Shown here: positions 11,792-24,916 of the stretch, one piece after another
Numbering within the stretch: position 1 is the stretch's first letter
Layout of the letters: the number at the start of each line of letters is the position of its first letter
Program-made: the position numbers and the translations under genes
IMG/VR virus record: IMGVR_UViG_3300023213_000092
Coordinates: 1-26,098 of that record
Length of the DNA stretch: 26,098 nt
From: a virus
Taxonomy: Duplodnaviria > Caudoviricetes
Strand: one strand, 5' to 3'
The notes under the pieces: model-generated
What the model saw: the letters and a program-made list of their open reading frames with translations, nothing else
What the model was told of the DNA's origin: nothing
The model's database searches: none

Positions 11792-12343
11792 ATGGCGTTC
11801 GCCGTCAAGGCCCGGCTGACCGGCGTCGAGCAGGCGCTGCGAAACCTCGGCGCGATGACGCGCACCGTGCGGAACACGATCCTCCGCAAGGCCGTCAATG
11901 CCAGCAGCCGGCTGGTGCTCGACGCGGCCCGCGCGCTGGTGCCGCAAGGGACGGGCATGCTCAAGCGATCGCTGGCCGTGCGCATCCAGACCTACCGGGG
12001 CAGCGGGGCCGTGGTGGCGGTCATCGGCCCGCGGACCGGCTACCAGAAGACCAGGCAGGGCAAGAAGCAGACGGCCTTCGGGCGCAAGATCAAGGACAGT
12101 GGACAGGACCCGAGCAAGTATGCCCACCTGGTCGAGTTCGGCCGTGCGAGCGTGCAGGTGAAGAAGGCCAGGGTGCTGTCCGACGGCGCGACCTTTTACG
12201 GCAGGGTCGTCCAGTCCGTGCCGCCGCGGCCCTTCTTGCGACCGGCCTATGAGCGCGAAAAAGCGCGCGTGATCGCAACGATGTACCAGCTCATTGCGGA
12301 GGAGCTGAACAAGGCGGCCAAGGCGCTAGGGGGCAAGAAGTGA
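11792..12343 (+). CDS. HK97 gp10-like tail completion protein
   Basis: VPQGTGMLKRSL, YAHLVEFG, PPRPFLRPA. Confidence 0.9.
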   Translation: MAFAVKARLTGVEQALRNLGAMTRTVRNTILRKAVNASSRLVLDAARALVPQGTGMLKRSLAVRIQTYRGSGAVVAVIGPRTGYQKTRQGKKQTAFGRKIKDSGQDPSKYAHLVEFGRASVQVKKARVLSDGATFYGRVVQSVPPRPFLRPAYEREKARVIATMYQLIAEELNKAAKALGGKK

Positions 12344-12762
12344 GTGCCGAGGCGGCCCTGGTGGCGTATCTCGATGCCGACCCGGATGTGGCGCGGATGG
12401 CCGGGCCGCGGATTTATCCGCAGTCGATCCTGCAGGGCGGCGGGCTACCCGCGGTGACCTATTACCGCACCGGCCAGCAGACGGTCAAGTCGCTGGGCGG
12501 CCTGTCCGGCACGAGCTGGGCACGAGTGACGCTGGACTGCTGGGCCGCCAACTACACGGACGCCAAAACGCTGGCCGACGCCATCCGCGGCACGAAGACG
12601 ACCCCGAAGCTGGACGGGTTTCGCGGCACGGTGGGCGGCGTCAAGATCCTGGCCTGTTTTTGTACGAGCGTCGTGGACGTTCGCGAGCGGCCTGTTCATG
12701 GCGACGAGGTCGGCGTGCCGCACGTGGCGATGGATTTCGACATCATCTTCGAGGACGTGTGA
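12340..12762 (+). CDS. Tail terminator (DUF3168-like)
   Basis: RIYP, LPAVTY, VTLDCWA...AKTLADAIR. GTGA overlap. Lies before the tail tube gene. Confidence 0.85.
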   Translation: MSAEAALVAYLDADPDVARMAGPRIYPQSILQGGGLPAVTYYRTGQQTVKSLGGLSGTSWARVTLDCWAANYTDAKTLADAIRGTKTTPKLDGFRGTVGGVKILACFCTSVVDVRERPVHGDEVGVPHVAMDFDIIFEDV

Positions 12763-20208: not shown

Positions 20209-20238
20209 CTCCTGATCCTCGTCTAAGTGGGTGCGCCG

Positions 20239-21624
20239 ATGCCCTGGTCCCCGGTACAATCGACGGGCAGCCAGAACCAGAACACGGCCTCTCTGGCGAC
20301 GGCGTTCAGCTCCAACGTCACCAGCGGCAACGTCGTGATCGTGGCGATCACGGCCGACAACGCCGTGGCGCTCACCTTCGGCGTCTCCGACACGCTGGGC
20401 ACAACCTATACGGCTGTCGCCAGTCCGGTCGTCAATGGCACCCGGCAGGTCCAGATATTCTACGGAGCGCTCACCAGCTCGGGGGCCAACACGGTCACCG
20501 TCTCGACCGGCGCCACGTCGGGCCCTCTCAGCGCTGGCATTGCCGAATACTCCGGCCTCTACACCGGCAGTCCGCTCGATGCGTCGTCTTCCGCGACGGG
20601 GACCAGCAACAGCCCGACCACCGGCAGCATCCCCGTCAGCGGCAACGGCGAGCTTGTTCTGGGCGTGCTCGCGGCTGGCCAGCCCGGAATGAATTTCAGC
20701 ATTACGGATGCCGGGGGCTTCACGAATCGCTATTCCGGCGTCACGAGCGGTAATTCCACGATCGATGTGGAGGACACGTCGGCCTCATCGGCGACGGCGG
20801 CGACCTGGACCATCACCAATAGCCCATCCTGGGCGGCAATGGGGGCCAGTTTCACGGCGCTGATCGCGGTCCCCATCGACGGCATGAAGCGCGTGTGGAT
20901 CAGGGACCAGGAACCCGACCGGCCACAAGGGTTCATCGGCCCGCTGCCGCCTCCGCTCATCCCGGCCGCCGGCGGCGCGCCAGCGCCCTTTGTGCTGCGC
21001 TGGGATGAGGACCGGCCCGCCAACGTGGTGCAAGCCCGTGTGCCGATCGTGCCGCCCTCGGCGCTGCGGCCGTTCACTCCGGTGGTGGTGCGCTGGGACG
21101 AGGAACGACCGGGGCTCGTTTGCCTGCTGCCGCTGTTGGCGCCGCCCGTGCCGGGCCCGGCACCTCGGCCGCGCATCCTGGCGAGCGATGACGACCGGCT
21201 CCCCGTCCTCTGGATCGGCCGGCCGCTGCCGGTCATCAACCCGCCGCGGATAGCCGGCGGTGCGCCGCCGCCCTTTGTGCGCGCCTTCGTGGAGCCGGCG
21301 GCGTCCGATCTGGCGGCCGTTGTGCTGCGCGCGGCCCCGTTACCTCTGGCAGCGGCCGGCCGTCCCGGCACGCTGATCCTGTTCAAACGCGGCCCGCTGG
21401 GCACCATACCCACTTTGCGCCAGGGCGAACCGGGTTGGATGACGGATACGAACCAGCTGTTTGTCGGCGACGGTTTCGCGGACCATTACATCGGCGGCCT
21501 CGCCGGCGTGCCCGCCACCAATACCGCGGCCGGCTATCCCGGCATGCTCGCCACCGATGGCACCTATTTGTACCTGTGCATAGCTGCCAACCAATGGAAG
21601 CGCGTGGCCCTGTCCGTTTTCTGA
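20239..21624 (+). CDS. Putative tail fibre protein
   Basis: N-terminal T/S-rich beta domain, Pro-rich repeats, ILFKRG..LRQGEPGWMTDTNQLFVGDG module, C-terminal GTYLYLCIAANQWKRVAL. Start 20239 or 20227. Confidence 0.78.
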   Translation: MPWSPVQSTGSQNQNTASLATAFSSNVTSGNVVIVAITADNAVALTFGVSDTLGTTYTAVASPVVNGTRQVQIFYGALTSSGANTVTVSTGATSGPLSAGIAEYSGLYTGSPLDASSSATGTSNSPTTGSIPVSGNGELVLGVLAAGQPGMNFSITDAGGFTNRYSGVTSGNSTIDVEDTSASSATAATWTITNSPSWAAMGASFTALIAVPIDGMKRVWIRDQEPDRPQGFIGPLPPPLIPAAGGAPAPFVLRWDEDRPANVVQARVPIVPPSALRPFTPVVVRWDEERPGLVCLLPLLAPPVPGPAPRPRILASDDDRLPVLWIGRPLPVINPPRIAGGAPPPFVRAFVEPAASDLAAVVLRAAPLPLAAAGRPGTLILFKRGPLGTIPTLRQGEPGWMTDTNQLFVGDGFADHYIGGLAGVPATNTAAGYPGMLATDGTYLYLCIAANQWKRVALSVF

Positions 21625-21636
21625 AGCGAGCGGCGA

Positions 21637-22242
21637 ATGCGATCCGCCCCGGTCCGTTATAGGCTGCCGGCGACGTTTCGTGTCTGGCTCGAAATTACCC
21701 TCGGGCTCGGCTTGCTGCTCGTGCTGCTGCTACCGGGGCTGGTGGCGCGGGCGTGGTGGTGGGCGAGAGCGAAGAGGAGGAGGTGGACCATGAGGCGCGT
21801 GCTGTTGCTGGCGGCGTGTGCCCTGCTGGCGGTCGCCAGCAGGGCCCCGAGTGAGCTCGTGCCGGTCTGGGAGTGGCACCGGCTCGACCGGGAGCATTAC
21901 GTGCTCTGTCGCTACGGCTTCCCGGCCGGCACGCTGCGCCTGGCGGACGGCGTGTACCTGCGCTGGCTACCGCCCGCTGGCTGGCAGCGCTGCAACCCGC
22001 CCTATCCGCCCTCAGCCGAAATCCTCCAGGAGCTGGAGCGCCGCCGGCGGATCACCTGGCAGCGGCAGGGACCACCAGGGGACAGGGGACGGGAGACGGG
22101 AATCGGGTTTCCGTCTCCTGGCTGTGGCCCCCTGTCTCCTGGCCCTGCTCATCGACTGACAACGACTTGTCAGTGCGCAGCAACTTGCCCAGCTTTTTTC
22201 CCAGGGCGAGTCAATAAATCCACCAGCTCGCGCATCAACTAA
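21637..22242 (+). CDS. Membrane/secreted hypothetical protein with a possible second in-frame start at 21790
   Basis: N-terminal TM helix. Internal GAGGAGGAGGT SD precedes MRRVLLLAACALLAVAS, a signal-like sequence. The C-terminal part runs through a repeat hairpin and is doubtful. Confidence 0.5.
   Translation: MRSAPVRYRLPATFRVWLEITLGLGLLLVLLLPGLVARAWWWARAKRRRWTMRRVLLLAACALLAVASRAPSELVPVWEWHRLDREHYVLCRYGFPAGTLRLADGVYLRWLPPAGWQRCNPPYPPSAEILQELERRRRITWQRQGPPGDRGRETGIGFPSPGCGPLSPGPAHRLTTTCQCAATCPAFFPGRVNKSTSSRIN
22066..22147. repeat. Heptamer-based inverted repeat element (MITE/REP-like)
   Basis: CAGGGGA CAGGGGA CGGGAGA CGGGA pairs with TTCCGTCTCCTG (22109-22120) and CCCCTGTCTCCTGG (22129-22142). 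Confidence 0.7.
22155..22174. promoter_or_regulatory. Palindromic protein-binding-site candidate
   Basis: ACTGACAA-cgac-TTGTCAGT, a perfect 8-bp inverted repeat, AT-richer than the background. Confidence 0.5.
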
Positions 22243-22462
22243 GGTAGTCGGCCCCGGACGCAGGGGACAGCCAGTGCGACCGCGGCGAAATGGCGGGAGG
22301 TCCGAGCCGTGACGACGGCCTACCAGGGGAGCCAAGGGAAATGTGGCCTTGCGGGGAGCCAGCGAGATCGGCCTAGCCGGGGAGCCCAGCGAAGTGGGGC
22401 CTAGCGACGACGGCGAAGCGGTCGGACCAAGGCCCTGGCGGACTGCCAGGGCCTTTTGTGTT
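22243..22462 (+). ncRNA. Candidate multi-hairpin small RNA
   Basis: Five stems with similar 9-nt loops, three GGGGAGCC..GGCCTWGC units, ending in an intrinsic terminator. The 5' end is undefined. Confidence 0.65.
22429..22462 (+). terminator. Intrinsic terminator
   Basis: AAGGCCCTGGCG-GAC-TGCCAGGGCCTT followed by TTGTGTT. Confidence 0.85.
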
Positions 22463-22490: not shown

Positions 22491-22623
22491 CCCCCAAGCC
22501 CCCAAGATGCTGAACCTCCGGAGCTGTCCGAAACGGTCCAGAAACACAGCAAGACGCAAGGAGAGGCAGAAAGACGCAAGTAGAGGAAGAAAGACGAACT
22601 TGCAAGAAGGAACTTGCAAGAAG
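22491..22623. repeat. Cluster of short tandem direct repeats
   Basis: CCCCCAAG x2 (22491-22506). A 20-mer AAGACGCAAGKAGAGGMAGA x2 plus partial (22551-22596). GAACTTGCAAGAAG x2 (22596-22623). Confidence 0.8.
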
Positions 22624-22787
22624 GAAGGAAAACATAGGGGACCAGCCCGCATAACCGGACCTTGCATCCGGCATTTTCGGCAAGAATTGCGGAGAGTGTG
22701 GTCCATTCTAAGCACCCAACGCGTTATGATATGTAGGCAGTGACACTGATATGGCATCCAGCGGGGCATCCAGAGGAGCAGACAGAC

Positions 22788-22985
22788 ATGACGAAAACAT
22801 GGCCCGAACGAATGCGCGTCGCCGAGGCATGCCTATACTCCGGCCTCGGTGACCAACTCATCAGGCAACTGATCCGGCGGGGCGTCCTCACCGCATACAG
22901 GCCGACGGCGCGTCGGACCATGATCGAAAAGGCATCCCTCGACGCTTATCTCGCCTCGGTGCGATTGCCGGCGGCTGCGAGTTGA
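22788..22985 (+). CDS. Excisionase-like HTH DNA-binding protein
   Basis: MRVAEACLYSGLG...IRQLIRRGVL.A......TMIEKASLDAYL winged-HTH pattern. SD GAGGAG. Upstream of the integrase. Confidence 0.85.
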   Translation: MTKTWPERMRVAEACLYSGLGDQLIRQLIRRGVLTAYRPTARRTMIEKASLDAYLASVRLPAAAS

Positions 22986-23064
22986 AACACCCAAAATGAG
23001 CGGCCGCCGCGACGGCGCGCAGCTGCCCGACGATGCCGCGCTCGCGGCTGTCCCTTTCGAGGAG

Positions 23065-23098
23065 GCCCGCTGGTCCCTAAGGACCAGCGGGCTTTTTT
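23065..23098 (+). terminator. Intrinsic terminator
   Basis: GCCCGCTGGTCC-CTAA-GGACCAGCGGGC followed by TTTTTT. Confidence 0.93.
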
Positions 23099-23122
23099 AT
23101 TGCGATGAGGGGAAAGCTGGGA

Positions 23123-23151
23123 TCGACATATTTGTACGAAGTGGATACAAT
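23123..23151 (+). promoter_or_regulatory. Sigma70-type promoter (distal integrase promoter)
   Basis: TCGACA-N17-TACAAT. Confidence 0.7.
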
Positions 23152-23163
23152 AGCTGGCAGTGG

Positions 23164-23192
23164 TTGACATTTTGGCAAATCTGGGCTAAGTT
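23164..23192 (+). promoter_or_regulatory. Sigma70-type promoter (proximal integrase promoter)
   Basis: TTGACA-N17-TAAGTT. Confidence 0.7.
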
Positions 23193-23209
23193 TGCGGGAG
23201 GGCGAAACC

Positions 23210-24916
23210 ATGAAAACCTTGATGCACGTAGGGGAAGTATCGACTATGCCACGGCGGGCCTATTCTTATAAGCGCGTTTCGGATCGGAAACAGCGAAAGG
23301 GCGATGGTCTGGATCGCCAGGCCGACTTCGCGGCTAGGATCTGTGAACGCAACGGCTGGACCCTGGACGATACTTTGCGATTCACGGACAGGGGCCGCTC
23401 CGGCTATCATGGCGATCACCGCCGCGGCAAAGGCCAACTGTTGCAATTCTTGGAGATGATGAACAGCGGCCGCATCAGCAAGGGGTCCGTGCTCATCATC
23501 GAGAACCTGGACCGGCTCTCCCGCGAGGAATTAGACGAGGCGCATGACTTGTTCAAATCCATCCTCCGCGCCGATATCTGGATCGCTACCGAAATGCCTG
23601 AGCGTGTCTACAGCCCGGAGAGCCTGAAGACCTTGCTCGGCACCATCGAGCCGTTGCTGCATATGTATGTGGCACATGAGGCGTCGCAGAAACTGGCCGA
23701 GCGCATCAAGGACAAGTGGGAACGACGCCGGGCCCGCGCCCAGCTCGAAGGGCGGCCGATTGGCCGGAAGTGCCCCGGCTGGCTCCGGCTCGCTGGCGGT
23801 GGCTATGAGATTATCCCCGATGGGCTGGAGACAGTGCGGACCATGTTCCGCTTGGCGCGGGAGGGGATGGGAGCCGGGCGGATCACGCAATGGTTGCGCG
23901 CACACGCAGACAAACATCCGGCATGGGGGAAAGGACTGTGGCTTCGTGCCACCGTGCGCAACATCCTCAGGGGCCGCGCCGTGCTCGGCGAATGGCAGCC
24001 GCGGCAAGGACGCAATGGGTATCGGATGAAAAACGTCGGAGACCCTGTCCGCAGCTATTACCCCGCCGTCATCACGGAGGAAGAATGGCAGCTCGCACAG
24101 GCCGCCGTCGAAGGTCGCAAGCTGGCCCGCGGCCGTCCCGGCGAGCACGAGGCGAACCTCTTTACCGGGTTGGTCTACGAGGGGATCAGCCATGAGCGCA
24201 TGAGTGTCAAGCCCATCCAGGGAGGGCCGAAGAATGCCCGGCGCACCTACCGCTACCTGGTGGCTTCCCGGCTCGGCGAGGACGCCAAGAGCGGCCGCGG
24301 CACCGCCTATCCGGCGTTTGAGCGCGCCATGCTCCGGACGCTAGGCCAGCTTCGGCCACGCGATGTACTTCCCCCTAGCAAGGCGCGGGACGAACTGGAA
24401 TTGCGTATCGCCGCCCTGACAACTCGCTTGCCCGCCCTGGACTATCGTAAGCGACAGCTCCAGGCCGACGCCGCCGATCCCGATAAGGATTACCTTTTGC
24501 CCGTCCTCGCCCAGGTCGTCAAAGAGATAAAGGCCACCGCGAAGGAACTAGACCGACTGAAGCTGGAAAGTACGACGGGCCGTGCAGAGGCACTGGCGGA
24601 AGTCCAAAGCACCATCGACCTGCTGGAAAAAGTCCGCGGCACTGACCAGGAGGAGGACATTCGCCGCCGCGTCAAGGCCGCGATCGGTTGGCTCGTCGAT
24701 TCCATTTGGATAGTCGTCCAGCGCTTCAACCAACTACGCGCGATCGTCCATGTGCAGATCTACCTCCGCGCCGGCGGGCGGCCGCGGTATGTGGCCTACG
24801 GGCCGGCCACCCTCCGACCTAAAGAGAACCCCTGGGATCTAAGCGATTACGATTTCCGGAGCGGTGAGTTGCCGGGGTATGTAGTAGGGCAGGCAACAAT
24901 CGCCGCCATCGCGTAG
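23210..24916 (+). CDS. int: Large serine recombinase (integrase)
   Basis: AYSYKRVS catalytic Ser, DRGRSG, LIIENLDRLSR, recombinase domain, YYPAVITEEEW, coiled coil. Start 23210 (SD GGGAGG) or 23246. Confidence 0.95.
   Translation: MKTLMHVGEVSTMPRRAYSYKRVSDRKQRKGDGLDRQADFAARICERNGWTLDDTLRFTDRGRSGYHGDHRRGKGQLLQFLEMMNSGRISKGSVLIIENLDRLSREELDEAHDLFKSILRADIWIATEMPERVYSPESLKTLLGTIEPLLHMYVAHEASQKLAERIKDKWERRRARAQLEGRPIGRKCPGWLRLAGGGYEIIPDGLETVRTMFRLAREGMGAGRITQWLRAHADKHPAWGKGLWLRATVRNILRGRAVLGEWQPRQGRNGYRMKNVGDPVRSYYPAVITEEEWQLAQAAVEGRKLARGRPGEHEANLFTGLVYEGISHERMSVKPIQGGPKNARRTYRYLVASRLGEDAKSGRGTAYPAFERAMLRTLGQLRPRDVLPPSKARDELELRIAALTTRLPALDYRKRQLQADAADPDKDYLLPVLAQVVKEIKATAKELDRLKLESTTGRAEALAEVQSTIDLLEKVRGTDQEEDIRRRVKAAIGWLVDSIWIVVQRFNQLRAIVHVQIYLRAGGRPRYVAYGPATLRPKENPWDLSDYDFRSGELPGYVVGQATIAAIA

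Follow-up and report, generated by a model that had tools for sequence, protein, structure and literature searches.

Tandem mini-pseudoknots in a phage-borne array: an apparently undescribed RNA family and candidate decoy

What kind of RNA, if any, lies between the tail genes and the recombinase region of this phage, and what would it do there? The window, by which we mean the whole stretch of 26,098 nucleotides that was analysed, comprises the whole of a 26-kb virus sequence that is 57% complete. Its + strand runs from terminase, portal, capsid, head-tail and tail genes through the array to a gene for an excisionase-like HTH protein and one for a large serine recombinase (Table 1). A preliminary description had pointed out, in front of the xis-int region, five different stems that present the same nine-nucleotide loop and are followed by a terminator. 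It had read them as a multivalent protein-binding RNA, which could be a CsrB-like sponge, a decoy or an antitermination array.

All five stem-loops were found where they had been described, each with three to four Watson-Crick pairs. The same was true of the three GGGGAGCC units (starts 22326, 22353 and 22379, spaced 27 and 26 nt), of two hairpins carrying GACG in the loop and of the terminator (22429-22455 plus a T tail). The loop nonamer alone is not rare, with 33 matches in the window against 26.5 expected; two stemmed motifs arose in none of 20,000 local dinucleotide shuffles, and two no more than 200 nt apart in none of 200 whole-window shuffles. Covariation of the stems was borne out, and loop positions 1 and 8 covary as had been noticed.

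The part of the earlier structural model that had to be revised concerns the loops. A repeat RNA with paired stems was upheld, but the nine-nucleotide loops do not appear to be free, since the linker upstream of each pairs with it. The four letters that follow each hairpin (U-A-N1-N2) are complementary to positions 2 and 3 of the next hairpin's loop, and the resulting order of linker, stem arm, loop and stem arm makes each repeat of about 25 nt an H-type pseudoknot. When the linker was taken from the previous hairpin, it paired with the downstream loop in 39 of 39 cases and with the upstream loop in 19 of 39. Where neighbouring loops differ (n=20), it fitted the downstream loop every time and the upstream loop never. 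None of 100,000 permutations attained the observed 38 strict linker-loop pairs. In a pairing-blind recount, in which 9 of 82 cores were without a linker, linker and next loop were paired in 73 of 73 units and in seven dinucleotide combinations of N1N2 and loop (GC/GC 46, CC/GG 15, GG/CC 5, CG/CG 3, GU/GC 2, CA/UG 1 and CU/GG 1). UU linkers accompany GAG loops in both instances (2/2). A metagenome scan that left both S positions free gave concordant letters in 8 of 8 matches with a second hairpin, compared with 24 of 37 lone matches.

In a 39-row alignment, which omits 5 of 44 two-unit segments as doubtful or overlong, 10 of the 12 named pairs vary on both sides, among units that share ancestry within any one array. 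The proposed register was 85% paired, against 21-46% in slid registers. Both crossing helices of the predicted unit are shown by covariation; the GA core is invariant by the search rule, and one locus-finding step demanded pairing. The first loop tends to get shorter as the stem gets longer, which is what groove crossing would require. Across arrays the period is 22-29 nt (57 spacings). A coding reading of the repeats was rejected, the spacings being spread over all three frames (27, 14 and 16).

A second type of unit, in which GUC precedes a hairpin with GAC in its loop, was found in 11 of 24 cases against 71 of 491; it is enriched, more weakly than type 1, and L001 offers a single compensatory case (GUU/AAC). 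In the type-1 unit, the letters U-A and G-A-A fit, and probably form, a sheared A.G plus a U.A pair of loop-E type. Letters that ought to be fixed covary here, which speaks against a likeness to a kink-turn strand, the HDV J4/2 strand, T-loops, 16S loops, guanidine riboswitches or REP feet.

In the window array, four units are strict and one is degenerate; two more, of the second type, are less certain, and the terminator follows. The preliminary description had further proposed a helix closing the array (22299-22305 with 22422-22428). It can form, with a nested energy of -71.0 versus -62.6 kcal/mol, but would break up the last hairpin and one linker and so exclude the last unit. Nested folding of the array is unremarkable (z = 0.25) and does not favour the hairpins, whose single-stem pairing probabilities range from 0.0 to 0.8 with the chosen boundaries; these values come from ViennaRNA, in which folds are nested only and pseudoknots are not scorable.

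Table 1. Predicted array features and neighbouring genes in the window.
Feature	Position	Strand	Description
Last ORF of structural-gene strand	21637..22242	+	201 aa; without family match; stop codon 5 nt before array
Whole candidate RNA	22247..22462	+	up to seven tandem mini-pseudoknot units (22247-22424) and intrinsic terminator; 5' end placed by homologues that begin with GUC after a -10 box
Type-2 unit, less certain	22247..22266	+	linker GUC 22247-22249 complementary to loop GAC; hairpin 22252-22266
Degenerate type-1 unit	22274..22296	+	pairing of linker GUGC with loop GCGA possible; hairpin at 22280-22296; without U-A start, counted as 'no linker' in pairing-blind recount
Type-2 unit, less certain	22299..22319	+	linker GUC 22300-22302 complementary to loop GACG; hairpin 22306-22319
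Type-1 pseudoknot	22321..22347	+	linker UACC, loop GGGA; stem GCCA/UGGC
Type-1 pseudoknot	22349..22372	+	linker (C)UUGC, loop GCGAG; stem GCC/GGC
Type-1 pseudoknot	22374..22400	+	linker UAGC, loop GCGA; stem GCCC/GGGC
Type-1 pseudoknot	22402..22424	+	linker UAGC, loop GCGA; stem CGAC/GUCG
Intrinsic terminator-like hairpin	22429..22462	+	11-12 bp, U-rich tail; pairing probability 1.0 in 5/5 folds containing it
HTH_17 excisionase-like gene	22740..22985	+	
Large serine recombinase gene	23192..24916	+	

Is the array a peculiarity of this phage? Pattern scans returned 3, 9 and 8 viral loci, 40 genome loci and 45 metagenome loci. Loci were kept if a second unit lay nearby, L071 and L102 being added by eye; lone pattern matches (36 of the 40 genome and 35 of the 45 metagenome loci) were not counted as arrays, and duplicates were dropped (L003, near-identical to L002; L112, the same as L033; and repeated contigs). 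The resulting 21 arrays include that of the window and 20 further ones; translated comparison sorts their flanks into 15 groups. The 20 other arrays keep the fold, and the number of units per array varies from 2 to 8. The carriers are phage, prophage-like or metagenome contigs, several of them linked to planctomycetes, and three arrays stand in metagenome-assembled genomes titled Planctomycetota or Planctomycetaceae. One record titled Bifidobacteriaceae (L048, CAZHTC010000017.1) is probably misbinned: its label is doubtful because it is a phage contig that has csrA, is akin to elements of planctomycete type and has 12 ORF clusters in common with the window. The host of the window phage is itself probably a planctomycete, since the only organism-named relative among the 120 listed for its recombinase is a Gemmataceae bacterium (50% identity).

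The array is rare. Among host-class genomes, 2 of 401 contain the exact unit, in both cases in an array already collected. A pattern allowing one mismatch gave 17 matches in these genomes, no more than its reversed control, the exact ones being the two known arrays only. Among the best 40 candidates per genome, a search of 151 genomes of the phylum with model R1, which missed the known G001 array, returned two weak matches, both in coding DNA. Each of seven phage records holds one array region, with one further 17.7-bit match in G553, and each of four genomes holds one among its best 150 candidates. The window array, compared by BLASTN with cultured phages, and the L001 array, compared with phages and plasmids, found chance matches only. 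A 5'-hairpin pattern found nine viral matches (three known arrays and six apparently coding chance matches), and a general two-unit pattern found 18, two of them known arrays. Three further viral patterns yielded only four known loci, one chance match and seven known loci, respectively; the last of these results makes the viral collection look saturated for that unit. As judged by comparison of loci, a chain of predicted mini-pseudoknots is conserved in unrelated phages, with one array per element. In the viral contig L115 (about 2400-2620) the two-unit pattern also caught a tandem repeat that is unrelated to the array and in which a 12-letter core recurs.

No Rfam family accounts for the array. 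The window gave zero matches at the gathering threshold of Rfam 15; up to E 10, a 17.5-bit match overlaps the terminator end and an 11.7-bit match the 5' end. The 20 homologous loci gave no Rfam match over the array and one unrelated tRNA. A literature search that included wording for the motif found no description of a phage RNA made of chained pseudoknots of about 25 nt. The available parts of PMC5737381 and PMC10690425 do not describe a mini-pseudoknot array, and supplement files 3-6 of the latter, as far as available, contain none of the motif words; this is a text-level comparison, as file 3 gives characteristics and no sequences, and an unnamed catalogue entry is possible. The mini-pseudoknot array is thus apparently an undescribed RNA family with a well-supported fold.

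As to transcription signals, 12 of 21 arrays have a sigma-70-like promoter in the 150 nt before them, versus 54 of 565 control windows, a contrast that is inflated because many of the controls are coding. The window array has no sigma-70 consensus promoter (best score 7 of 12), so its RNA may be the end of a late transcript. A strict terminator scan was passed in 3 of 21 arrays, and about ten more have a terminator-like hairpin by eye. L084 is a predicted stand-alone transcription unit of promoter, three units and terminator, with an enolase-family gene diverging from it on one side and a convergent gene on the other. In L026 and L027 a fresh promoter follows right behind the terminator, and in G552 and G553 the array promoter has an operator-like word beside it that recurs beside the next promoter. 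The order promoter, array, terminator-like hairpin and gene is found in L023, L028, L033 and L102. In L001, L002 and L100 no clear terminator separates the array from the gene into which it continues, as would suit a role in cis. Two other kinds of element were seen 3' of arrays. A tRNA-like element (T-arm plus acceptor-like stem) stands on the + strand of L025 (about 2585-2720) and L071 (about 2595-2680), is preceded in both by a common short word and is called by neither ARAGORN nor Rfam; it may be a second uncatalogued phage RNA. Behind the array terminator of L044 (about 1300-1560, + strand) lies a different hairpin element in several copies.

The neighbouring genes offer no constant partner. 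The carriers as a whole share no protein cluster; an integrase-like one spreads furthest, over 5 of 20 groups, and the adjacency to excisionase and integrase genes that had been mentioned for the window is not a conserved, fixed one. The lack of a partner gene common to carriers of 15 flank groups points to a partner in the host. An antisense role was rejected, there being no antisense match longer than 15 nt in nine of the arrays' own records. No ToxN-type toxin was found in 149 neighbouring ORFs, in 31 window ORFs or in 24 ORFs compared with PADLOC, which leaves room for an unknown toxin family at single loci. ToxN (PF13958) was detected in 0 of 401 host-class genomes, a search in which the control genomes were silent too. 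In G554, a complete 90-kb phage with an integrase, none of 146 ORFs matched CsrA or ToxN. Its array belongs to a long stretch of small genes, among which there are NAPRTase, PRPP-synthetase-like and Lar-like matches; NAPRTase, phosphoribosyltransferase and Lar-like genes occupy L175 1078-2771 and 7518-8045 of the same leftward region, and NAD-salvage genes of this kind serve in counter-defence. In L033, an ORF of the operon downstream of the array (2037-2420, - strand) has a sub-threshold match to the Acb2/Tad1 hairpin domain (E 4e-4).

Several other features of the window were recorded. The ORF directly upstream of the array found no match in an Atlas search, and its 3' part contains a long imperfect inverted repeat (22075-22142), an indication that the actual gene is shorter than annotated here or consists of two parts. 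Purine-rich direct repeats with 20-nt and 14-nt copies (22547-22633), possibly recombination or regulatory sites, lie between the array terminator and the excisionase-like gene. The interval between that gene and the recombinase promoter (23123-23151) has a strong terminator together with a GC-rich hairpin (22999-23101). A tail-region protein (20227-21624) has a weak Mtd_N-like match close to its end, and no reverse transcriptase was found among the 31 scanned window ORFs.

For the function of the array RNA, we see about an even chance that it is a phage decoy titrating a host protein. Such an RNA would be a small non-coding transcript of about 100-250 nt in which 2-8 mini H-type pseudoknots, each of 22-29 nt, follow one another head to tail. 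Each unit would consist of (C)U-A-N1-N2, a purine-rich loop of 1-8 nt and a stem of 3-6 bp with the loop R-N2'-N1'-G-A-A-N-Y-N, to which N1-N2 would pair. As the units lie 0-2 nt apart, they could stack into a rod that would show one three-dimensional surface many times, its shape being kept while the paired letters are free to change. In many phages the RNA would be made from its own promoter. It would act in trans as pseudo-ToxI does, titrating a host protein able to recognize the shape; a defence or regulatory protein that binds RNA is the most plausible candidate. That the array moves between unrelated phages without a common partner gene makes a host factor the probable target. Transcription, rod stacking, action in trans and a host protein target are inferred. 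Of the earlier proposal of a multivalent protein-binding RNA, the novel structured repeat RNA is retained and the decoy still appears to be the best option, at the expense of the CsrB-like and antitermination options. A more specific version is tentative: the arrays may represent a new class of counter-defence RNA, a rod of natural pseudoknots that are unusually small, at about 24 nt, and would disable an as yet undescribed host immune protein or soak up its signal. It is equally tentative that, under this counter-defence reading, the RNA has been passed between unrelated phages.

Roles in cis account for part of the layout. A leader whose chain would shield the 5' end from exonucleases as an xrRNA-like roadblock, or control downstream translation, is rather improbable: it fits the fact that the array opens the transcript in most cases and is followed by a head gene in L001 and L002, by a ribosome-binding site 25 nt further along in L100 and by the tRNA-like element in L025 and L071, and tandem xrRNAs exist in viruses, but the L084 array is followed only by a terminator and the convergent gene, the window array would end its transcript, and downstream genes are unrelated among carriers. 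Less probable again is a put- or nut-like antiterminator, through which RNA polymerase would be modified to read through the adjacent terminator. Although this option agrees with the gene order of L023, L028, L033 and L102 and with the operator-like words at the G552 and G553 promoters, it is weakened by the stand-alone L084 unit with its convergent neighbour and by the new promoters behind the terminators of L026 and L027. The terminator hairpin is moreover predicted to be fully paired, no N-like protein is common to carriers, and the number of units is not constant.

A sponge for the many CsrA paralogues of the host, acting through GGA in the first loop, is unlikely, more so than either role in cis. 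CsrA is encoded by all four array-bearing genomes (7, 14, 1 and 7 genes), and we know of no Csr small RNA described for hosts with 7-14 CsrA paralogues. Three elements carry their own csrA 3-4 kb from the array (G003:C17 31046-31195, G550 180-335 and G553 12296-12448), and 49 of 73 units have GGA between linker and loop. Against this, 24 of 73 units are without GGA, the GGGAG word belonged to the search patterns, the presence of csrA is without a baseline from array-free planctomycete phages, and no CsrA match was found in the complete phage G554 or in the partial records G000, G549 and G552. The frequent GGA motifs of the preliminary description exist in the window (8 in 201 nt) but are at chance level across the 21 arrays (125 versus 122.6 in 200 shuffles), and ANGGA is depleted (12 versus 30.6), which speaks against a CsrB-like sponge in its canonical form. 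We rate lower still an array of small-molecule aptamers soaking up a nucleotide immune signal or a metabolite. In being compact pseudoknots with a conserved non-canonical core, the units are reminiscent of small aptamers, and the sub-threshold Acb2/Tad1 match downstream in L033 would agree with this, yet each unit has few conserved unpaired letters and no common downstream gene of a riboswitch-like kind was seen. Least credible is a DNA-level or non-functional repeat, REP- or MITE-like or a product of slippage, which the exact unit duplications in L001 and L002 would suit; single arrays per genome, compensatory changes in two crossing helices, an orientation that follows promoters and terminators, and an excess of G-U over A-C on the proposed strand (7 to 3, small numbers) all argue against it.

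There are few phage non-coding RNAs for which covariation supports the fold, and pseudo-ToxI is one of the few known cases of an RNA decoy against a host protein. With its 6-nt loop engaged in a pseudoknot, a unit of only about 24 nt poses a structural question in itself. Because a 25-nt unit is easily synthesized, probed, crystallized and used as bait, the question is directly testable; were the counter-defence reading true, the RNA as bait would reveal a new anti-phage system in planctomycetes.

How does the array compare with known systems? What defines CsrB and Rsm RNAs is that (A)NGGA recurs, more often than expected by chance, in single-stranded stretches or in the loops of hairpins. Like CsrB and RsmXYZ, the array combines repeated modules with a terminator in what would be a stand-alone small RNA, from hosts with CsrA; unlike them, it has loops tied up in pseudoknots, is depleted in ANGGA and has no Rfam match. 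The put RNA of HK022 and the boxB of lambda nut are structured RNAs just past a phage promoter and before a terminator. The array shares this position but has many units in variable number and includes cases without a downstream gene to serve. It differs from REP/BIME elements and MITEs in having one array region per genome (four genomes, best 150 candidates each, and seven phage records). With xrRNAs it has in common compact viral pseudoknots in tandem, and with the T4 gene 32 operator, from what is available of PMC10690425, a compact viral pseudoknot; in contrast to both, it is without a fixed downstream gene. CRISPR, TIGR and VIPR arrays, according to the accessible portions of two preprints (bioRxiv 10.64898/2026.10.21.760802 and 10.64898/2026.10.15.759431), have periods of 60-79, 18 and 5 nt. 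They resemble the present array as phage-borne tandem arrays of fixed and variable letters, whereas here the period is 22-29 nt, the variable letters pair within the unit, and neither an effector gene near the array nor an outside target was found. The closest comparison is with type III antitoxins. As far as the consulted part of PMC5086642 goes, ToxI, antiQ and CptI have repeats of 34-36 nt or more in near-identical copies, in contrast to units of 22-29 nt that differ in sequence and keep only the pairs. The arrays here have few A-rich tails between units, and unrelated genes in place of a toxin RNase gene follow the array terminator. The pseudo-ToxI of phage TE is, in the portion of PMC3475682 at hand, a toxin-less phage-borne copy that acts as a decoy; here no cognate toxin was found in the host-class sample, in a search of ToxN with a silent control. 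With both type III antitoxins and pseudo-ToxI, as these sources present them, the array shares a promoter, tandem H-type pseudoknot repeats, a terminator and a variable copy number.
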